DNA of 36,971 nt from Elusimicrobiota bacterium (GCA_041694815.1 JBGFSC010000022.1:1-36971); one strand, 5' to 3'; positions 14,921 through 36,971 are shown, numbered from the stretch's first letter. Notes: generated by a model from the sequence alone, not told the origin. A program made the numbers and translations.

Positions 14921-15748
14921 CTAGAAGATTTTTTGAATCATCGGCGCAAGTTCACTTACTACTGCGTCAAATGCGGGCACGTCCTTAATCTGTTTGTCGA
15001 TCGAAGCCTGCCAAGCCGCTCGATTCTTGGCAAGCAGAAACTTATTGAAAAAGTCCTGTGTCGACTTGAACGGCTCCTTCTTGAGCCGACACTTGGCCTC
15101 GAAGGCCTCCCGGACCTGATTCTTATCGCATTTGCGCTTCTTGAGCACCCACCAAAGATCGTAGAAGTCTCTTGGCCGCGGAACTCTTTTGCGCTGCTGA
15201 AGAATGGCCCGCAGCTTTTCGGCCAGGATTTCCTCCAGGCTGTAGCACCAGGCCTTGGCGCCACGAAGATGATCGCTATAGCGATGGAGAATGAACCGGT
15301 CCTGCGGCTCGAGCACGACGTCCTCGTAATAAGTTAGATCCAGTTGGATGCGGGGCAGCATGGTCTTGGGATTGCTGGGGCCGCGGTATTCGATCTTGGC
15401 GACGAAGGCCTCTTCCCCCTCCACCGACCTGGATTTATGGAACTCGGCCAGTCTATAGTCCACGCCGGACATGTGGGAAGCGTTCCGGCAGGCATTCTCG
15501 ATAAGCGGCTTAAGCTCTTCGGCCGGCAGTCTCTTGCGACAGGTGTAATCTAAGTCCTGCGAGAACCGGAACTCGTCGAAGTAGCACTTCTTGAGCGCGG
15601 TTCCCCCTTTGAAAACGATCCCGTGGTAGAGCTTGCGCTCCCTGGAGATGCCGTAAAGCATCCAGCCGAGACAATAGTCCCGCTCCAGGACCCCATAATG
15701 GATGCCGGAATGCCCCGCCGCCCTTTTAAGCTCAGCGGCGCTGATCAA
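14921..15748 (-). CDS. abiEii: AbiEii family nucleotidyltransferase toxin (type IV TA)
   Basis: LERDY, VFKGGTALKKCYF...RFSQDLDY, LEEILAEKLRA, RPRDFYDLW. Confidence 0.92.
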   Translation of the reverse strand: MISAAELKRAAGHSGIHYGVLERDYCLGWMLYGISRERKLYHGIVFKGGTALKKCYFDEFRFSQDLDYTCRKRLPAEELKPLIENACRNASHMSGVDYRLAEFHKSRSVEGEEAFVAKIEYRGPSNPKTMLPRIQLDLTYYEDVVLEPQDRFILHRYSDHLRGAKAWCYSLEEILAEKLRAILQQRKRVPRPRDFYDLWWVLKKRKCDKNQVREAFEAKCRLKKEPFKSTQDFFNKFLLAKNRAAWQASIDKQIKDVPAFDAVVSELAPMIQKIF

Positions 15749-16544
15749 GATAGCCTTCCAGGTTGTAGTTGAGCTGCAGGTTCCACTCCGAGATTTGCGG
15801 GCCGGAATCGCCGCCTCCCACGTCCAAACGGCTGATCCCCTTGCTGATCTTATGCCGCCAATGGTTCAGCCGCTCCCGGGGCCAGCCAAGCCATTCCCCC
15901 AGAACTCCAAGGCGCTTAAATAGCACCCCACGGTCCATCTTTCGGGCGTAGCTTTCCAGCTTTTCCAAGTCCACCTTGTTCTTGGCTTCCATGAAAGCCT
16001 TGCTGACTTCCGTGAACCCGCCGCAATGTTGTGGCCATAAAACCGCATCCAAAAGGGTCCTTTCTAAGTCCGTGATCCATATCTTTTCCTGGCCGACCCA
16101 GGTGAAGGTAGCGCCGAAAAATAGCTCCTTCGGCACGGTCAGGATGCGGTAGGAAACCCCCGCCATGGAGCCCTGGTAGCGATGCTTCATTCGGGGGCTG
16201 ATGACATAAACCCGGTCCGGGATTTGCTCGGTCAGGCCGTGGTGGCTTAAGGCCGACCACAGCCCGATCATGTAGGGCGAAACCAGCCTGGAAGCGATCA
16301 CGAACTCATGCTCGGTAAACTCTCCGGTGGGCCCGGCCTCGAAGGGCAGGATCATGTACTTGCCGCGCTCGAGCCGGGCGATCCAGCGGCGCTTGGCCAG
16401 GCGGGAGAGGAAGTTATTTAGTCCCCCGCGGCCGCCGCTCCAGTAGCGGGCGGCGTCCTTATGGGTGAAAAAAGCCTTTCCCGTGCCTGCCAACTGCCTA
16501 AGGAAGAGCCCGCCAGTAGCACCAAGACTGTAGTTATTATTCAT
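15732..16544 (-). CDS. abiEi: AbiEi family antitoxin/transcriptional regulator
   Basis: wHTH (LSRLAKRRWIARLERGKY), SALSHHGLTEQIP, TDLERTLLD, KRLG; overlaps the abiEii start. Confidence 0.92.
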   Translation of the reverse strand: MNNNYSLGATGGLFLRQLAGTGKAFFTHKDAARYWSGGRGGLNNFLSRLAKRRWIARLERGKYMILPFEAGPTGEFTEHEFVIASRLVSPYMIGLWSALSHHGLTEQIPDRVYVISPRMKHRYQGSMAGVSYRILTVPKELFFGATFTWVGQEKIWITDLERTLLDAVLWPQHCGGFTEVSKAFMEAKNKVDLEKLESYARKMDRGVLFKRLGVLGEWLGWPRERLNHWRHKISKGISRLDVGGGDSGPQISEWNLQLNYNLEGYLDQRR

Positions 16545-29410: not shown

Positions 29411-30067
29411 TTAGTTACCATAACGTCTCGATTCGACGAACCGAAGCCTCCGAGCGATTTCCGGATAACCAAATTTTTCCGCCATAAGTACGGCGTTTCG
29501 GCCGCCCTTATCCATCGCGCCGACCCTCGCGCCGCGGGATAGGAGGATATCCACCGCCTCGCGGCGCCCTTGGCGAGCGGCCAGCATCAAGGGCCGGTTA
29601 CCGTCGGAGTCCTTGGCCTCGATATCGGCTCCATTGTCGATCAGGAGCGCGATGATCGACTCCTGTCCCTTCAAGCACGCCCACATCAGCGGGGTCCAGC
29701 CCAGGCGGTCGCGCGTCTCGGTCCTGGCCCCATGCTTGAGCAGAATTCGCACCGCCTCGACGCGGCCCCAGCGCGCCGCGCTCGACAAGGCGGTTTGCAG
29801 CTCCCGGTTCTGCGCTTCCGGATCGGCTCCGGCCTTAAGCAGCGCTTCCACGGCCTCGCCGTGCCCCCGCGTAGCGGCCCAGAGAAGCGGGGTCCATCCG
29901 CCCTCGTCGCGGTAGGCGGGCGAGGCGCCACGGGCCAGCAGCTTTTTCACGGCTTTGGCGTCTCCGTTTTTGGCAGCCAATAACAAACGCCTGTCGGCCT
30001 GCATCTGGCAGGCGGCCAGGGCCACGGCGGCGGCCAAAAGACAGCAGCGGCCAACCCGGAAGGCCAT
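29411..30067 (-). CDS. Ankyrin-repeat lipoprotein
   Basis: Five to six ankyrin repeats (GWTPLLWAA, GWTPLMWAC, GNRPLMLAA); lipobox LAAC after ATG 30067. Confidence 0.85.
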   Translation of the reverse strand: MAFRVGRCCLLAAAVALAACQMQADRRLLLAAKNGDAKAVKKLLARGASPAYRDEGGWTPLLWAATRGHGEAVEALLKAGADPEAQNRELQTALSSAARWGRVEAVRILLKHGARTETRDRLGWTPLMWACLKGQESIIALLIDNGADIEAKDSDGNRPLMLAARQGRREAVDILLSRGARVGAMDKGGRNAVLMAEKFGYPEIARRLRFVESRRYGN

Positions 30068-30269
30068 CGAACAGCATTGTAGTTTAAAATGCGATATAAT
30101 TCTCGTCACGGAAGGGTGCGTGAGCGGTTGAAACGGCACGACTGGAAATCTGAAAACGCCCCTTCGGGCTTCGGCGAGCCCTCCAGTTCTCGTCGGAAGA
30201 CGTTGGTTGCCGTTGGGTCTCATCCTGCCTTTTGGACCCCAAAACACTACGTTAACACTACGCTAAGTA

Positions 30270-30443
30270 TTGCGCCGCGCCGGCGTTCGAGACCCCTTGC
30301 GGAGCCCTACCAGCAGGCGCGACGCATTTTCCTCTTTGTCCGTCTGCGATCCTATGCGGACGACGCGGGTCCGGAGGCTTTGGTCATTGCCTGGGCGCTG
30401 GCCCCGCATCCGTGGACGCGGGGCATCCGGCCGTCGCCGTGAG
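30270..30443 (-). ncRNA. Structured DGR RNA segment 3' of the TR (spacer-like)
   Basis: Minus-strand hairpins GCCCCGCGTC-CACG-GATGCGGGGC (30424-30401) and GGGCTCC-GCAA-GGGGTCT (30307-30290); their G-U pairs form only on the minus strand. Boundaries approximate. Confidence 0.55.
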
Positions 30444-30568
30444 CTCACAAGGCGGAAGCCGAGATTGTCGTTGCGGTTGCCGGGGTCGTCGTTGTTGCGC
30501 TGCGCCGACCGCAGGTTCCTGGCGTTGTTGTTCCAGGAGCCGCCACGAATAACCCGGTTCGAGCCTGT
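30444..30568 (-). repeat. DGR template repeat (TR)
   Basis: 125 bp, AAC-rich ([41 protein letters not shown] in the target frame); 106/125 identical to the VR. Confidence 0.97.
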
Positions 30569-31581
30569 AACGCCCCCAAACCCATTATATCACCAAGCGA
30601 ACGCCGCAGGCTCATGGTATCGGCGTGGACCGCGTGGCCCAATCGGCTTCTTAAAGAATCGACGGCGTCATTTTCGGACAATAGGCCGCAGGCCAGGCCT
30701 TCCGCGCTCCGCCTCAGCTCTCGGACCAGTCGCCGCTTGCCCGCATTATCCAAACGGATGAGCTTCGACCATAGGCGCAGACCGAGGAACGGAACGCCTT
30801 CCGACACAGGCGCAAGGACGGTCGCCCGAGATTTCAGCTCCAATTTCAGCTCATGCGCCAAGAACTGCCGAATCTGATCATGCGCCTCGCGCAAGAATCG
30901 CTTCGAGTCCGCGAAGCCCAGCAAATCGTCCATATAACGGAGATAGGCCGGCGCACGCAGACGCTCCTTTATAAAATGGTCCAGGGGTGAAAGATAGTGA
31001 TTGGCAAAATGCTGGCTCGTCAGATTGCCGATGGGTAGTCCCTTTCCCGGAAACGATCCCGGCGCGCCGTGATCGATGATCCGGTCCGTCAGCTCCAATA
31101 GGCGCGCGTCTTTGACGATGCGCCGCAAGACGGCCTTGAGCACATCGTGATCCAAGGTCTCGAAGAATTTGTGGATATCGAGCTTTAGGAAACGGCCGAA
31201 GCGCCGAGCAAAGCTTTGCGCCCGCTTGACTGCCGCATGGGAACCCTTGCCGGGCCGGCAGGCGTAGCTGTCGAAGATCGCGGCGCGCTCGAACAACGGC
31301 TCCAAGGCCGCGCACAAGGCATGATGGGCTACCCGGTCCCTAAAATCAGCGGCCGAGATCGTCCTTGCCTTAGGGTCGGAGATGTAAAACGTCCGATAGG
31401 GTCTCGGTCGATAGCTCCCGTCCAAGAGCTCACGTTGAAGGTTCAGAATTTCCCCCTCCAGGTGAAACCGGAAGGAAGCCGCGGATTGCGTCGCGCCTTT
31501 GCCACGTCCGGCGCGCTTGGCGGCGGCGAGCAAGGCTCCGAAATCCGCGACCTGTTCGAACAGATGCCCGGTTCGCTTCAT
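30445..31581 (-). CDS. DGR reverse transcriptase
   Basis: [44 protein letters not shown] (DGR-type SQ motif), YLRYMDD, GVPFLG. Confidence 0.96.
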
Positions 31582-31921
31582 CGGGCGCTTCGGCTGCGCA
31601 TCCAGCCGCCGATCATGCGTCCGGCCTCGTCGACGTTGCGGATGATATACTCAAAACCCCGATGGTCCAGATGACGCTCCTCGTGGCTAATCCTTAGAAG
31701 AACCCGCAGCTTTTCCAGGGACAGGCTCGCCTGCGACAGGGCGGTCGTCTTCTCCTTGGCGTAGCGGGCTTCGACTATTTTCTCGAGAACGTCGAGCGCT
31801 AGATTATCGATGCGAGAGGAAAGGGTGAAGCGCACCCGCTTGGGAAATTTCTCAGTGCGGGATAAAAGGTCGCGAAGCGTTTTTTCCCAATGGACGAAGA
31901 GGGGAGCTCGACGGCTGCCAC
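31578..31921 (-). CDS. avd: DGR accessory variability determinant Avd (four-helix bundle), apparent 1-nt frameshift near the 5' end
   Basis: PLFVHWEKTLRDLLSRTEKFPKRVRFTLSSRIDNLALDVLE...LEKLRVLLRIS...EAGRMIGGW; ATGA overlap with RT. The natural-looking start GTG 31921 (MAAVELP) is one base out of frame. Confidence 0.85.
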
Positions 31922-31924
31922 GAA

Positions 31925-32428
31925 TTACCCCCCCCCCATTTTCGGCGACAAAGCGGAGTTTTCCGAAGCCTGCGCCTCGGCCAGCTTCGTTAAAGCGGCC
32001 AAGAGTTCTTCGCCCCAGCGCTTGGATTTGGCCTCGCCGATGCCATCGATTTCCTGCAATTGCGCCAGGCTCGCCGGCCGTTTCATCGCCAGCTCGGCCA
32101 ATTCCCGGTTATTCAAGATGAGATAAGGCGGAATGCCTTCCTGCTTGGCCTTGCGGCCGCGCCACAGGCGCAGCTCGTCGTAAATGCTTTTGGCGGCCGG
32201 GTCCAGCTCCGCGCGCCAGTCCTTGCGCGGGGCATCGGAGGAGGAGCGCGCGTCGCCCGCCAGCTCTCGATATCGAAGGACCAACACCAGGGTCGGCGTC
32301 TTTTCGTGGACGAGGAAATGTTCCGAGACTTCGAGCACGTCCTTGCCGATTTGAAAATCGGAAAGCTCCGCGTCGCTAAAGCTCCCGGTCGCCGAATTCA
32401 TACGCAGGGTGAAGACCTTGAGTTTCAT
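31925..32428 (-). CDS. HRDC-domain DGR accessory protein
   Basis: YDELRLWR..KAKQEGIPPYLILNNRELAELA..RPASLAQLQEIDGIGEAKSKRWG; GAGGGG ribosome-binding site. Confidence 0.9.
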   Translation of the reverse strand: MKLKVFTLRMNSATGSFSDAELSDFQIGKDVLEVSEHFLVHEKTPTLVLVLRYRELAGDARSSSDAPRKDWRAELDPAAKSIYDELRLWRGRKAKQEGIPPYLILNNRELAELAMKRPASLAQLQEIDGIGEAKSKRWGEELLAALTKLAEAQASENSALSPKMGGG

Positions 32429-32454
32429 TTCCCCTCAACCTGCTTCGGTCGCTC

Positions 32455-32483
32455 GCCGGGCGCGGCTTACGCACGCGCCCGGC
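32455..32483 (-). other. GC-rich hairpin/cruciform downstream of the VR
   Basis: Perfect 10-bp stem GCCGGGCGCG/CGCGCCCGGC with a 9-nt loop containing GC-GTAA-GC, 62 nt after the target stop codon. Confidence 0.6.
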
Positions 32484-32545
32484 TCGCTCCCTCTATGCTA
32501 CCTCAAACAACGCGGACCAAGTGCCAAGAGTCCAAAGTCCAAGGG

Positions 32546-33487
32546 CTAACGGCTTGACCTCACAAGGCGGAAGCCGAGATCGTCGGAGCGGCGGCCGGGG
32601 CCGCCGTAGCGGCGCTGCGCCGACCGCAGGCCCCTGGCGACGTTGCCCCAGGAGCCGCCACGAAAAACCCGGGACGAGCCTGTCTTCTCATGAGCGCTGC
32701 CATCGGTCGGAGTGTCCTTGTAGGAAGCGTACTTATCTTGCACCCACTCCCAGACGTTGCCGTGCATGTCGTAGAGACCCAACGGATTCGGCTGCTTCGA
32801 AGCGACCGCATGGGTGCGGCCGTTCGAGTTGTCATAGAACCAGGCATGAGCGTCCAGGCCGGAGGCGTCCGCGCCAAACGAATAGCTCGACAGCGTTCCG
32901 CCACGCGCCGCGTATTCCCGCTCGGCCTCGCTTGGAAGCCGGTAGGTATATTTGTCCTGGATTTGGTTCAAGCGCTTGATGAACTGCTGCGCGTCATCCC
33001 AGGAAACCATCTCAACGGGATTATTGACGCAGAGCTCCACACCGAGAACCAGCTTATGCTCCTTATCGCCGCAGGCCTCCTTGGTCTTAAAGCTAGAAGG
33101 ATTGGCACCCATCACCAGGGCGTATTGAAGCTGGGTCACCGCGGTCGCCTGCATCTCGAAGCCCTTGCTCAGCGTGACGGCATGCTGGGTTTCATCGTCG
33201 AAGCGGCCTGCCTCATTATTAGGACTGCCCATGAGGAAAGAGCCGGGTCCCACGGCAATGAATTTAGCCGCGATCCCGATCTTGGCCGGGTTCAGCGCGG
33301 CCAAGGCATCGGCCTTGCTGATTCCCTGAGGCGCGCCCTGCGGGCGATTGGCCTTGGCGGCGGCCAGGGCGTCACGGACGTCCTTAGAAAGCCCCGCAGC
33401 CGCTCCCTCGAAGCTACCATCGCCGTTCGCTTGTCCTTTCGGAACAGCCAAGCAAAGAAGCCCGAGTACGACCCATAATCTTTTCAT
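32546..33487 (-). CDS. DGR target: secreted protein with FGE-sulfatase-like (C-type lectin fold) domain
   Basis: Signal peptide MKRLWVVLGLLCLAVPKGQA; FLMGSP, PVEMVSWDDA, YRLPSEAE, PNPLGLYDMHGNVWEW, RGGSW, LGFRLV; VR at the C-terminus. Confidence 0.94.
   Translation of the reverse strand: MKRLWVVLGLLCLAVPKGQANGDGSFEGAAAGLSKDVRDALAAAKANRPQGAPQGISKADALAALNPAKIGIAAKFIAVGPGSFLMGSPNNEAGRFDDETQHAVTLSKGFEMQATAVTQLQYALVMGANPSSFKTKEACGDKEHKLVLGVELCVNNPVEMVSWDDAQQFIKRLNQIQDKYTYRLPSEAEREYAARGGTLSSYSFGADASGLDAHAWFYDNSNGRTHAVASKQPNPLGLYDMHGNVWEWVQDKYASYKDTPTDGSAHEKTGSSRVFRGGSWGNVARGLRSAQRRYGGPGRRSDDLGFRLVRSSR
32559..32683 (-). repeat. DGR variable repeat (VR)
   Basis: 3' end of the target gene; differs from the TR at 19 positions, each a TR adenine. 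Confidence 0.97.
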
Positions 33488-33740
33488 CCCTTTATTCCTC
33501 CTGTCCGACAACCTTGCGCCCATGATACCGTGCGGCACGGCGCGTTGCCTGAGGCTTTGTACCTATCTATCCTCGGTTTTAGGGCCTACCCGAACCTGGG
33601 CCCAAAGTCCTATTTGTAGCTTAGCGGGAAAAGCCGCAGAGCGCCGCGAAAGACGGTTTCAAGAAAAATCTCTTACGTTTCCATGGAATCTTGAATTACA
33701 GAGCGGGGAGCTTGATGGCAAGTTGAAGCAAAAATATCGC

Positions 33741-33778: not shown

Positions 33779-34552
33779 ATGGAGCATATCACCCAGCCTC
33801 GCCCGGATCCCAAGCGCAAGGACTTCTTTGATTATCGGAAGATCCGGGACATGCGCAATCATTATTTCGAGCAGCGCGGCTACGACAAGGAGCCCGAGAA
33901 GTTCTGGGTCCGCAGCGATCACTTCCTGCGTCTCTTCAACGAGGACTTCAAGCTTAAAGGCGACAAGGCTGTCAGCCGCCGCACCCTACAGTTCTACAGT
34001 TCCCCCCAATGGCGGCTCTTCCCCTTGCCGAAATACCTCAACCGCCACACCGCGCATTACCTCTTTCCGGACCATTACGAGCTGCTCGGCGCGATCTGGA
34101 CGATGCGCAGCAAGCTCTTCATGCCCATTGACATGATCCGCGCCATCCTCAAGATCGCCAGCCGCGATCTCTATCCTATGATCATGGATTGGGACGAGTC
34201 ACCGGACGCGCTGATCGACGCCGTCATGATGGACAAGCACGAGGAAATCGAGCCCGAGGAGTTCCACCTGTACCGCGCCTCCAAGGACCTTTTGGATGAC
34301 GGCTACCTCTTTACCCTAAAGCGCGACCATTCCGAGGCCGACGCCAAACGCGCCATGCTCAAGGAATTGGACAAGCAGTATGCGGCCATCAAGGAATGGA
34401 TCCAATCTGGCCGCGCCGGCGAGTTCCTCAATGCGCTGGCCGAGGGCCGCCGGGAGTTCACTGACGTACGCGAGCGCCTCGAATACATGACGGCCAAGGA
34501 GCGGGCGAAGGACACGGAAGCGGAGAAAGCCGAGGCCGAGGAGGAGGCTTGA
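33779..34552 (+). CDS. Putative MerR-like HTH regulator of the mobile element
   Basis: VSRRTLQFYSS..WRLFPLP...HTAHY....YELLGAIWTMRSKLFMPIDMIRAIL resembles a MerR winged HTH. Confidence 0.6.
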   Translation: MEHITQPRPDPKRKDFFDYRKIRDMRNHYFEQRGYDKEPEKFWVRSDHFLRLFNEDFKLKGDKAVSRRTLQFYSSPQWRLFPLPKYLNRHTAHYLFPDHYELLGAIWTMRSKLFMPIDMIRAILKIASRDLYPMIMDWDESPDALIDAVMMDKHEEIEPEEFHLYRASKDLLDDGYLFTLKRDHSEADAKRAMLKELDKQYAAIKEWIQSGRAGEFLNALAEGRREFTDVRERLEYMTAKERAKDTEAEKAEAEEEA

Positions 34553-34749
34553 ATTTTTTTGACATGAACCATGCAGTTAGCTGTCTATATAAAGCAAAAC
34601 AGGGTCAGGGGCGCGTACGCCACTGGCGCAGAAACTGGCGGAAACGTTGGTGGATCAGTCCGCCGCTGCATTCCGCCACCCGGAGGCATTGGAGAGGGCC
34701 GAATGCGGGCGAATAGGGCATTTTATCGCGGATTGCCCCGTTTCTCACC

Positions 34750-34800
34750 GAGGGGGAGGGGTCAGCACGCCAGTGGCGCGCGTGCTGACCCCTCCCCCTC
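34750..34800. repeat. Perfect 21-bp inverted repeat (candidate origin/oriT hairpin)
   Basis: GAGGGGGAGGGGTCAGCACGC-cagtggcgc-GCGTGCTGACCCCTCCCCCTC. Confidence 0.85.
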
Positions 34801-34863
34801 TACGTAATTTTTGGAAGAGCAGATTGCGGGGGTTGGTTCGAAACGGGGCAAAGGGAGGAGAAA

Positions 34864-36306
34864 TTGAACAAGGAAGAAGGGAAGGAAGAGATCAAATCAG
34901 TGGATGACGGTAATGGCGGTGGTATTGGGGTGATGGAGAAGAGGGCAGAAACAATGGAACCCGGAACCGAGGGGCTGACCGATAAGATGCTCGGGCTGCT
35001 AGTTAAGCTCTCGGAGTACGGCTACCTGACGATCGAGGAGATACGGTTCATTTATGGAAACGAGAGCCATGGCTACCGGGTCCTAAAGAGCCTGGCGCGG
35101 CAGGAGTTGGTCGCGACCTTCACGACCGGCCTAAAGCCCCGTCGCGCCTACTGCCTGACGGCGCGTGGCTACCGGCTGCTCGAGCAATTCGGCCGGCTTC
35201 GGGCCGGCAAAAGGTTCCAGCCGGCCGATTATAAGCAGTTCATTTGCGGGCATCGGCTGGCCTGCGCTAAGGCCGGACTGATCCTGGAAACCCATCCTTT
35301 AATTCAGGCTTACGCTCCCGAAAGCGTCCTTTGGGGCAAGCGGGAAAGAAACGATGAAAAGGTCTGTGACGCCGAGTTTTTATATGGCGAGGAGGGAATC
35401 CGCGTGGGGCTGGAGGTGGAGCTGACGCTCAAAAACACCGAACGCCTGGCCGAGTCCTTCCGTGATCTCGGCCAGCGGGACTTGGACCAGGTTTGGTGGC
35501 TTTGCGGGAACGAAAACATCCGGGAAGCGCTGATCAAGGCGGCTCAAAGGCGGTCCTGGGAGCTCACGCCACGGCATTTCTTTGGGATGATGGATGAGCT
35601 TTTGGAGAGGCGCCTAAGCCTTACGCTGTCCGATATCGATGGAACGGCCTTTACGATCGATCCTGCGAGAGCGGACCTGCCGACGGCTCCGCGGCTGGAG
35701 GCTCCCCCTCCCCAGCCGCAGGCCGCGGAGCCGGAGAGAAGGGAGATTTATTCAGCGCCTGAAATCCCGCCTAACGCGATCGCCGTAAGGCCGCCAGAAG
35801 TGGCGAAAGAAGAAGTCCATGTTATTTACCTCCAGGAGTTGGCCTGGAAAGGCTTTTGGGTCGCCATACTGACGATCATGGCTTTTTTCTTGTTGAGAAT
35901 TCCAATCATGGCATTCCATGACCGATGGGGCTGGTTGTTCACTTCCACGTATTGGATGGACGACTGGGTACGGCGGCCCGTGGATCGCCGGAACTTCAGC
36001 ATGGGTCCTTTAAAATTCGACTTGCTCTCGCTGGAACGTACGCGGCAATGGCATCGCCTGAGACTGCGAATCCGAAACGAATCGGATTCCCACTGCATTG
36101 TCGAATCCCTGCAGATCGTGGGTAGTAGCACCGATGCGATGTTTAGGGACCAAGAGGTATCCGAAGAACTGACGGCGGCGTTTCCATGGACCGGCAACGT
36201 AGTATTTTTCAAGCCGGTGACGGTCGATCGGATGAAGCTGCGGCTCAAAATAGGCGGTCCTGGCGAAGTCTGCCGCAGCGTCTTGATTCCGATTGACTTC
36301 CAATAG
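34864..36306 (+). CDS. Replication-relaxation (Replic_Relax)-like wHTH/PD-(D/E)XK protein with TM helix and C-terminal beta-rich domain
   Basis: YGYLTIEEI...AYCLTARG, HRLAC, CDAEF....RVGLEVELTLKNTERL; Pro-rich linker; TM segment GFWVAILTIMAFFLL; GGAGGAG ribosome-binding site. Confidence 0.6.
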   Translation: MNKEEGKEEIKSVDDGNGGGIGVMEKRAETMEPGTEGLTDKMLGLLVKLSEYGYLTIEEIRFIYGNESHGYRVLKSLARQELVATFTTGLKPRRAYCLTARGYRLLEQFGRLRAGKRFQPADYKQFICGHRLACAKAGLILETHPLIQAYAPESVLWGKRERNDEKVCDAEFLYGEEGIRVGLEVELTLKNTERLAESFRDLGQRDLDQVWWLCGNENIREALIKAAQRRSWELTPRHFFGMMDELLERRLSLTLSDIDGTAFTIDPARADLPTAPRLEAPPPQPQAAEPERREIYSAPEIPPNAIAVRPPEVAKEEVHVIYLQELAWKGFWVAILTIMAFFLLRIPIMAFHDRWGWLFTSTYWMDDWVRRPVDRRNFSMGPLKFDLLSLERTRQWHRLRLRIRNESDSHCIVESLQIVGSSTDAMFRDQEVSEELTAAFPWTGNVVFFKPVTVDRMKLRLKIGGPGEVCRSVLIPIDFQ

Positions 36307-36356
36307 GAGGTGAGAGAAAACAAGCGACCCAAAAAATTCACGCCAAGGAGGCGAAC

Positions 36357-36590
36357 TTGAACGAAAAGCGGTACATGGACGTCGGGGAATTGTCGGACTA
36401 TCTGGGAATCTCGAAATGGCTGATCTACAAATACGTCAAGAACCGGGAGATTCCCTTCATCCCCTTCGGCCGGCTGGTCCGGTTCGATCGCGTCGTAGTC
36501 GAGAAGTGGGCGGAAAAGAAAATGGTGCGCGGCTGGTGCGGTTCGAGGACGCGCGAGAGCAGTTTTGTTGCCGCCGCCGACTCAAACTAG
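36357..36590 (+). CDS. Excisionase-type helix-turn-helix protein (HTH_17)
   Basis: YMDVGELSDYLGISKWLIYKYVKNREIPFIPFGRLVRFDR; AAGGAGG ribosome-binding site. Confidence 0.88.
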   Translation: MNEKRYMDVGELSDYLGISKWLIYKYVKNREIPFIPFGRLVRFDRVVVEKWAEKKMVRGWCGSRTRESSFVAAADSN

Positions 36591-36607: not shown

Positions 36608-36883
36608 ATGGGAATATTCAAGCGCGAGGACTCGCCGTACTGGTGGTACCGTATTCAAATCGGAGGCCGGATGCTCACCGGCAGCACGAATACCCCGGAC
36701 AAGCGTCTGGCGTTGCGCATCTACACGGAAAAGCATCATCAGCTCACCGAGGAGCATCATCTTCCCGGTCAACGGGGAAAGCACACGACCTTCTTCTGGG
36801 CGTGCAGCCAGTACTTGGAAAAGCACGCCAAGGTCAATAAGCGGTCCTGGAACACTCCTGTCCGGTTAAAGTTGGAGGCATAG
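36608..36883 (+). pseudogene. N-terminal fragment of a phage-type tyrosine integrase
   Basis: MGIFKREDSPYWWYRIQIGGR...ST.TPDKRLA...TTF...SQYLEKHAKVNKRSW directly after the xis-like gene, with GGAGG ribosome-binding site; stops at 91 aa with no catalytic domain. Confidence 0.6.
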
Positions 36884-36971
36884 CTGGAGGTCTTGACGCC
36901 TGAGGCGGTCGAGCCTTTTGGGGTTGAGGTGGAGCAGATCGAAAAGCGAGGCTCGCTCAAGCAAGGTTTCT

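Follow-up and report, generated by a model that had tools for sequence, protein, structure and literature searches.

An HRDC-type diversity-generating retroelement with an avd gene frameshifted as assembled and an FGE-type lectin-fold target in an Elusimicrobiota bacterium

The present analysis concerns a stretch of 36,971 nucleotides from an Elusimicrobiota bacterium (GCA_041694815.1 JBGFSC010000022.1:1-36971), referred to in its entirety as the window, and in particular the diversity-generating retroelement (DGR) at positions 30270-33487. Along the minus strand this element comprises a target gene ending in a variable repeat (VR), a set of tandem repeats, a GC-rich inverted repeat, an HRDC gene, the accessory gene avd, a reverse transcriptase (RT) gene, a template repeat (TR) and a structured non-coding RNA, here termed the spacer (Sp). 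A second, paralogous DGR, the RT gene of which is split by an insertion sequence (IS), is present in the same genome; where the two must be told apart, the parts of the window's element carry the number 1 and those of its sister the number 2. Related loci are designated L and contigs of the genome C, and the positions of the features are collected in Table 1.

Table 1. Features of the DGR in the window, followed by the sister element and related remnants on other contigs of the genome
Feature	Position	Strand	Description and support
Target gene, 313 aa	32546-33487	minus	FGE-sulfatase (C-type-lectin-like) domain, Pfam PF03781 E 3.6e-47, residues 75-310
VR, target residues 269-309	32559-32683	minus	19/19 TR mismatches at adenines; aligns to TvpA 251-291
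Tandem repeats, 3-4 copies of ~8 nt (CCCTTGGA CTTTGGA CTCTTGGCA CTTGG)	32517-32545	minus	Directly 3' of target stop; kept behind VRs
GC-rich inverted repeat	32455-32483	no strand	10-bp arms, GC-GTAA-GC mini-hairpin cap; candidate target-recognition hairpin/cruciform
HRDC accessory gene, 167 aa	31925-32428	minus	Pfam PF00570 E 1.3e-18
G10 run	31928-31937	minus	Gly tail of HRDC protein, at expected avd ribosome-binding site; 10-13 G in 6/9 cassettes
avd	31578-31921	minus	GTG start at 31921; stop 31578-31580 overlapping RT start codon (ATGA); Pfam bAvd E 1.5e-13
RT open reading frame (ORF), 378 aa	30445-31581	minus	RVT_1 E 6.3e-16
Upstream duplex arm GGGTTTGGGGGC	30572-30583	minus	Partner 30367-30378; duplex folding in 6/8 cassettes
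TR	30444-30568	minus	29 sense-strand adenines in 125 bases
Sp RNA, 177 nt	30270-30446	minus	Directly 3' of TR; 52 pairs, 17 compensatory
Second DGR (L007, L008, L002, L044)	C25:58073-62080 and C31:9172-9875		Two adjacent FGE-type targets, HRDC, intact avd, IS-split RT, TR2, Sp2
TR2	C31:9345-9469		Differs from TR1 at 15 positions
Remote VR of TR2	C25:11264-11388
Decayed VR-like ends of FGE-type genes (L005, L006)	C8:7707-7831, C38:1180-1304, C40:1031-1155
Orphan Sp-like RNA (L046)	C31:7319-7480	minus	No TR in front; 57.7 bits, E 1e-12

The ungapped 125-bp alignment of TR1 and VR1 has 19 mismatches, each at a sense-strand adenine of the TR (A>G at 10, A>T at 5 and A>C at 4). Altered positions thus comprise 19 of the 29 TR adenines and none of the 96 other bases, and the hypergeometric probability of all 19 mismatches falling on the 29 adenines is 1.5e-15. 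When the alignment was extended, similarity was found to end at both borders of the 125-bp span. The VR lies in phase 0 of the target ORF, of which it forms the last 41 codons, and the 19 changes are distributed over 12 codons and are all non-synonymous. Read in the target frame, the TR holds 10 AAY codons (9 AAC and 1 AAT), no adenine substitution turns any of its 41 codons into a stop, and the number of reachable protein variants is 7.1e15. Recomputation returned the repeat coordinates, length and substitution types which an earlier inspection of the same DNA (the sequence-only reading) had given; the codon count bore out its ten AAY codons and its statement that no stop can arise, and realignment disclosed no mismatch outside the adenines. 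Its estimate of some 10^15 variants likewise holds, while its figure of 26 adenines in the variable span becomes 25 between the first and the last mismatch, a correction that is immaterial. Because none of the 96 non-adenine positions differs, the last retrohoming into this VR was recent.

The target gene has an AGGAGG ribosome-binding site 9 nt 5' of its ATG and terminates in TAG. Its product combines the lectin-type fold and the C-terminal VR expected of a DGR target, the PF03781 domain reaching through a VR that corresponds to that of TvpA, a variable protein of Treponema denticola. Among solved structures its relatives are PvdO (5hha, E 1.3e-28) and TvpA itself (2y3c, E 1.9e-25), while the catalytic cysteines of true FGE, at the positions which we take them to occupy, lie outside the aligned stretch. 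The N-terminus is of the Sec type, with MKR, a 12-residue hydrophobic run and GQA/N, as judged by eye from the sequence without a predictor; the signal peptide proposed earlier is borne out to that extent, and the protein is likely to be a secreted or periplasmic member of the lectin fold.

Several lines of evidence bear on the nature of the RT. In structure searches the top match of RT1 was PDB 8ub7, a 328-aa reverse transcriptase (E 4.1e-50, residues 2-325) that, given its equal length, is probably the enzyme of Bordetella phage BPP-1, with group II RTs at 1.7e-23 or weaker. A phage-genome search aligned 99% of RT1 with the annotated brt of BPP-1 (35.5% identity), and in a tree of 23 rows, small and with long branches, RT1, 17 relatives and Brt formed a clade with 100/100 support that excluded four RTs with a group II or 'retron-type' annotation. 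All 17 of the RTs that were aligned share I184, G185, S189, Q190 and Y216-M217-D218-D219 (IGNLTSQ and YMDD); the motif IGxxxSQ marks the RTs of DGRs. The best NCBIfam name for RT1 is that of a group II intron RT/maturase, at 127 bits against a cut-off of 300, in a collection that holds no DGR-RT model. The phylogeny which the sequence-only reading had named as a check thus places RT1 with Brt and not with group II or retron-type RTs, and on these comparisons RT1 is a DGR-type reverse transcriptase. Its conserved part extends to about 30568, the final 41 codons running through the TR in another frame. In four of six relatives the RT stop falls at residue 345, 15-17 nt inside the TR; this stop is absent from the window, L014 and L015, in which the ORF continues through the TR, so that RT1 reads through its own template because the usual stop is missing.

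Across 10 cassettes the Sp RNA is conserved directly behind the TR; it has six helices, of which the one nearest to the TR, at 30401-30424, is a 10-bp stem closed by a tetraloop, and its stretches AUGACCAAA and GGACGAAGAG are invariant and single-stranded. Under this structure 95.0% of cells are paired as against 35-40% with slid partners, a control that favours the structure inasmuch as it uses the sequences from which the structure was derived, and none of 500 shuffles reached the observed values. A covariance model built from the same cassette sequences scored 159 bits in L012, 60.5 bits in an Acidobacteriota locus, where pairs are compensated, and 22-26 bits in Accumulibacter loci, each time immediately 3' of the TR. 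The twelve bases 5' of the TR form, with bases of Sp, a duplex that brackets the TR, and three of its positions covary among 10 sequences. The first stem-loop and the TR-bracketing duplex match features reported by Handa et al. (bioRxiv 10.1101/2023.10.23.563531), who describe a 'stop duplex' and a stem-loop 3' of the TR in the RNA of BPP-1 and in 207 of the 278 DGRs that contain Avd. Over 29900-33700, Rfam returned no match at E<=1, including no intron RNA and no retron msr/msd family, and the 177-nt RNA has no detectable sequence likeness to any family curated there. As a covariation-supported RNA found across phyla, Sp could be curated as a family of its own and serve to find the TRs of this clade.

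The region behind the VR contains two further elements. The GC-rich hairpin is situated approximately 76 nt 3' of the VR and 26 nt 5' of the HRDC start, and capped hairpins of this kind occur behind all four VRs of the genome with adenine-only mismatches as well as behind the VRs of L009-L015. Those of the relatives have GCGAAGC, GTGA or GCGGAGC caps and compensatory arm changes, while more distant relatives possess one or several GC hairpins with GCGGAGC, GCGAAGC or GCGTAAGC caps. CTTGG-type repeats likewise follow all four adenine-only VRs and are present in more or less degenerate form behind the VRs of L009-L015. In the three decayed VR-like copies of the genome both repeats and hairpin are lost or partial. 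The window's target and the remote C25 target are 82% identical in the first 60 nt after the VR and 71% in the preceding 300 nt of coding sequence; among the remote target and the three decayed copies the corresponding values are 82-84% for the coding sequence and 47-75% for the flank. Since clusters of CTTGG (three or more within 40 nt) number 22 genome-wide, the bare motif is unspecific, and it is only the tight periodic arrays that adjoin VRs. The repeats may have a function in targeting, and the hairpin is a candidate target-recognition element by analogy with the phage DGRs of Guo et al. 2011 (PMC3240598), which need a hairpin or cruciform 4-34 bp from the VR. A pairing of the Sp stretch AUGACCAAA with the CTTGG repeats was considered and rejected, as only some 6 bp match and the Sp sequence is unchanged in L013 and L014, the repeats of which are degenerate.

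The HRDC protein consists of an N-terminal beta-alpha-beta-beta domain (residues 1-55), a linker and the HRDC domain. Its model has a predicted local distance difference test score (pLDDT) of 81, and the HRDC part superposes on that of Escherichia coli RecQ (1wud) with a template modelling (TM) score of 0.92; the same two-domain protein was found in 19 other loci. For the N-terminal domain, Pfam gave HRDC alone and a protein atlas no usable match, and when its model (pLDDT 89.7) was compared with 48,161 chains the best Z was 5.0, generic small alpha/beta domains being tied below, so that no fold was assigned. A complex prediction for RT and HRDC protein scored 0.00; controls were not run and the value is no evidence either way. 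The standing of HRDC as a recognised DGR accessory gene, invoked by the sequence-only reading, finds support in PMC5758913 and PMC4891356. At the junction of the HRDC stop and the avd start a homopolymer of 10-13 G is present in six of nine cassettes (the window, L009, L013, L015, L016 and DGR2). Its length determines the end of the HRDC protein, and the run could be slippage-prone. A fusion of HRDC to Avd through slippage on the G10 run was discarded, as the relatives have separate genes with an avd start of their own 3' of the run.

It is in avd that the element departs from its relatives. The body of the gene scores 92 bits on the NCBIfam model DivGenRetAVD (cut-off 80), so that the accessory gene is present; as assembled, its canonical start is parted from the body by the loss of one nucleotide behind codon 7, within the C run at 31901-31904, in comparison with all eight relatives examined (DGR2 and seven others). 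The consensus avd start in these eight reads start-xxx-TCC-RTC-GAG-CTN-CCN-YTN-TTC-GTC-CAY-TGG, and the window shares the first seven codons. The longest avd ORF with an ATG, GTG or TTG start comprises 85 aa and covers positions 26-106 of the 107 of the bAvd profile, while the frame of the body, which has no canonical start, is open upstream and passes an ATT codon just after the G10 run. A metagenome scan with a pattern spanning the deletion site gave no matches. The deletion may be a real lesion or a consensus or assembly error, and translation might get past it if tRNA-Pro slipped by -1 on CCCC or if the ATT codon served as a start. Because of this deletion the description of the DGR as complete, given in the sequence-only reading, is not supported as it stands. 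Among DGRs avd is common but not universal, and cassettes without accessory genes are listed by Wu et al. (PMC5758913).

A search of the whole genome with the TR, which the sequence-only reading had suggested as a means of finding remote VRs, yielded a second template and three VRs on C25 that differ from TR2 at 15, 19 and 17 positions, all of them adenines. At the 15 positions that distinguish TR1 from TR2 the base is a non-adenine at 14 on the TR1 side and at 12 on the TR2 side; because the two differ mostly at non-adenines, each VR can be assigned to one template, and the three C25 VRs belong to TR2. The sister DGR has the cassette order, target family and post-VR elements of the window, from which it differs in having two adjacent targets and one remote target, an intact avd and an IS-split RT. 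Identity between the two amounts to 81% for HRDC, about 82% for Avd and, for the RT, 79% in the N-terminal and 62-66% in the C-terminal part, and Sp1 is close to identical to Sp2 in every conserved column. A multicopy IS, flanked by a 9-bp target duplication, interrupts RT2 after residue ~246, and the two RT halves end two contigs, each half abutting an IS end. RVT_1 matches in the genome are limited to RT1 and the N-terminal part of RT2, making RT1 the sole uninterrupted DGR RT in an assembly that is 97.8% complete; conversely, the only avd with an in-frame start is avd2.

Eleven full-length FGE-type paralogues are encoded in the genome. The VR-like ends on C8, C38 and C40 have, besides adenine differences, 10-14 non-adenine mismatches to TR1 and 10-15 to TR2, and these genes are likely to be former DGR targets that are no longer served. 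On C38 and C40 they are found at the start of the contig, and that of C40 borders an IS end. In the orphan Sp-like RNA, the third copy in the genome, the third helix is nearly identical and the middle helix is missing; it overlaps the 3' end of an AbiEii ORF, which together with AbiEi stands between it and Sp2. A type IV toxin-antitoxin pair (AbiEii/AbiEi) is also encoded in the window (14921-16544, minus strand), the one directly behind TR2/Sp2 on C31 being a second such pair.

Cassettes of this kind recur in related loci. The order HRDC-avd-RT is found in eight (L009-L011, L013-L016 and L018), in seven of which the target gene lies just upstream, and a TR directly after the RT together with an A-biased VR is present in six of the 10 loci scanned (L009-L018). 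Among 35 related loci, 27 carry an HRDC-like gene 5' of the RT or avd, and nine give an Avd2-like match. The related cassettes derive mostly from Elusimicrobia metagenome-assembled genomes (MAGs), and the distribution is patchy, RT homologues of >70% identity being found in two of 40 relatives searched and in none of five genomes of the same family (77-91% complete). A cassette type nearly identical to that of Elusimicrobia (75-78% RT identity) is present on the short contigs L011 and L017 of MAGs labelled Bacillota and Bifidobacteriaceae, which may reflect mis-binning or recent transfer. A literature search on DGRs in Elusimicrobiota found no paper on the topic.

In type the locus is a catalogued one, Architecture C of Wu et al. 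2018 (PMC5758913), and is ordinary save for the avd deletion and the split sister RT. This architecture, as set out in that survey, is made up of cassettes with an HRDC gene, which account for 14 of 372 DGRs and about half of which also carry avd; the window has its HRDC gene, identified by both family and RecQ likeness, inside the cassette. The chromosomal DGR of T. denticola likewise combines an HRDC gene in the cassette with an FGE-type target and a C-terminal VR (TvpA), and its non-adjacent targets are matched by a feature of the sister element. According to Nimkulrat et al. (PMC4891356), the T. denticola HRDC gene sits between TR and RT and overlaps the RT, whereas in the window avd is present as well and the TR follows the RT. 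The window's target also differs in having a Sec-type signal with no evident lipobox, on reading the sequence, and the host here is an uncultured groundwater Elusimicrobiota bacterium. With the DGR of BPP-1 (mtd-avd-TR-brt) the window shares the RT clade, the Avd family, the adenine-only pattern and the AAY-rich TR codons, as well as a structured RNA 3' of the TR, the TR-bracketing duplex and a GC-rich hairpin 3' of the VR. In contrast to BPP-1, the TR of the window follows the RT and overlaps its 3' end, an HRDC gene is added, the target is a cellular protein of the FGE type rather than a phage tail-fibre protein, and the hairpin stands ~76 nt rather than a few nucleotides from the VR, with the tandem CTTGG repeats in between.

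What the sequences themselves establish is the set of parts with their order and families, the adenine-only pattern, the conserved and covarying RNA with its duplex, the hairpin and repeats behind each adenine-only VR and the presence of the cassette in related genomes. By analogy with BPP-1, the transcript of TR and Sp would be bound by RT and Avd, and cDNA synthesis would be primed from the Sp RNA and be error-prone only opposite adenines. The cDNA would then replace the VR, guided by the 3' end shared by TR and VR and by the downstream DNA hairpin, with the outcome that 17 codons would be varied (up to 7e15 proteins) on the ligand-binding face of the target. We consider it highly probable, at roughly 85%, that the locus is an HRDC-type DGR for which mutagenic retrohoming is predicted, and in which the avd frameshift is probably either an assembly error or covered by the avd of the sister. 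The identification as a DGR, already made in the sequence-only reading, stands on the adenine-only mismatches, the DGR-type RT, the presence of avd and the FGE/C-type-lectin target with its VR aligned to that of TvpA. Several observations nonetheless weigh against this interpretation. The GTG start of avd is out of frame with the Avd body as assembled, the distance of the hairpin exceeds the phage-DGR range given in PMC3240598, and a promoter scan of the minus strand found no sigma-70-like promoter upstream of the target. For the HRDC protein the prediction is a helper that binds nucleic acid, unassigned to any step of the cycle, and every mechanistic step is drawn from one phage system, the RT of which is only 35% identical. 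In the same scan, terminator-like sites were fewer than the shuffled expectation.

That the locus should be no DGR at all, its repeats having arisen by duplication or gene conversion with chance differences and its RT being that of a group II intron or retron, is vanishingly improbable and may be regarded as already refuted. The NCBIfam name of RT1 speaks for such an origin, although its score is far short of the cut-off, while the adenine restriction, which recurs in three more VRs of the genome and in relatives, the clustering of RT1 with Brt, the presence of avd and of a TR-linked structured RNA and the lack of any intron or retron RNA family across the locus speak against it. The alternatives that matter concern the avd deletion. 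It is distinctly possible, if somewhat short of an even chance, that the missing base is a mistake of the assembly or consensus, or that the -1 slip or the AUU start gets round it, and that DGR1 is complete, autonomous and active. The remainder of avd is intact, has no stop codon and is close to Avd2 in sequence, the lesion falls in a short homopolymer (C4 here, C5 in L013), the body frame is open upstream through the ATT codon, and the want of non-adenine differences in the VR argues for recent activity of DGR1. Four C residues are, however, not an error-prone length for short-read assemblies, and the genome has other real and recent lesions in the IS insertions of RT2 and of an integrase-like ORF. 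Should the lesion be real and uncomplemented, DGR1 would be recently dead, its VR frozen in its last state; the frameshift itself and the decay of DGR parts elsewhere in the genome (three VR-like ends without downstream elements, the orphan Sp-like RNA and the split RT2) are consistent with this, which we hold on the whole to be unlikely, as TR1 and VR1 have no non-adenine difference, RT1, HRDC1, TR1, Sp1 and the target-side elements are undamaged and an intact Avd paralogue is encoded in the same cell.

With avd1 frameshifted and RT2 split, the two elements would have to share parts to keep working, and they can accordingly be viewed as a single interdependent system in which RT1 is the sole RT and Avd2 the sole Avd, both serving TR1 and TR2. 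This view draws on the IS-split RT2 with its 9-bp duplication and the two RVT_1 matches of a nearly complete genome, on the frameshift of avd1 beside an intact avd2, on the near-identity of Sp1 and Sp2 in conserved columns and on the three VRs of TR2, which were refreshed recently, as all of their mismatches are at adenines. We nevertheless think it quite improbable. Both lesions may be very recent or minority variants or, in the case of avd1, an error; at non-adenines no VR agrees with a TR other than its own, the sequences giving no sign of cross-use of the proteins; and cross-recognition would have to occur at the identities observed between RT1 and RT2 and between Avd1 and Avd2. The further proposal that the pair is interlocked and that CTTGG repeats and capped hairpin act as an address label selecting which of the 11 paralogues diversify is put forward here with low confidence; if it were true, one intact RT would keep four lectin-fold genes at three places hypervariable.

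Taken as an HRDC-type DGR, the locus adds one such element to the phylum Elusimicrobiota, and the genome supplies a comparative set of two paralogous cassettes with four live and three decayed VRs. The link between live status and the downstream CTTGG repeats and capped hairpin amounts to a testable definition of a DGR target in this clade. The complementary lesions, in avd here and in the RT of the sister, make the pair a natural test of trans action by DGR proteins on the template RNA of a paralogue, a question which bears on the engineering of orthogonal DGR mutagenesis systems.

The remainder of the window is cellular in character, with genes for AcrB-type efflux, Kup, M16 peptidases, an LMF1-like protein and an ankyrin protein, and family searches found no phage structural genes among the genes of the window, in agreement with what the sequence-only reading had stated of the neighbourhood. 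Flanking genes were also considered as a shared mobile island, a notion that was dropped when none matched in 35 related loci. The ankyrin-repeat protein (at least four repeats and a hydrophobic N-terminal segment) is encoded at 29411-30247 on the minus strand, directly 3' of the DGR RNA. Next to the DGR, a small patch at 33779-36590 encodes a 257-aa protein without a family, a 480-aa protein with a weak likeness to PadR/MobC replication-relaxation proteins and an excisionase-type helix-turn-helix protein; it may be the remnant of an integrative element and is not common to related DGR loci. A short integrase-like ORF (36608-36883) is cut at 36853 by the same multicopy IS that splits RT2. Positions 36853-36971 represent the left end of this IS, with the terminal repeat CACTCCTGTCCGGTTAAA and an interior that is not assembled; identical IS ends terminate no fewer than 13 contigs on either side, and an IS end with 79% similarity is located at 13-79, at the left end of the window.

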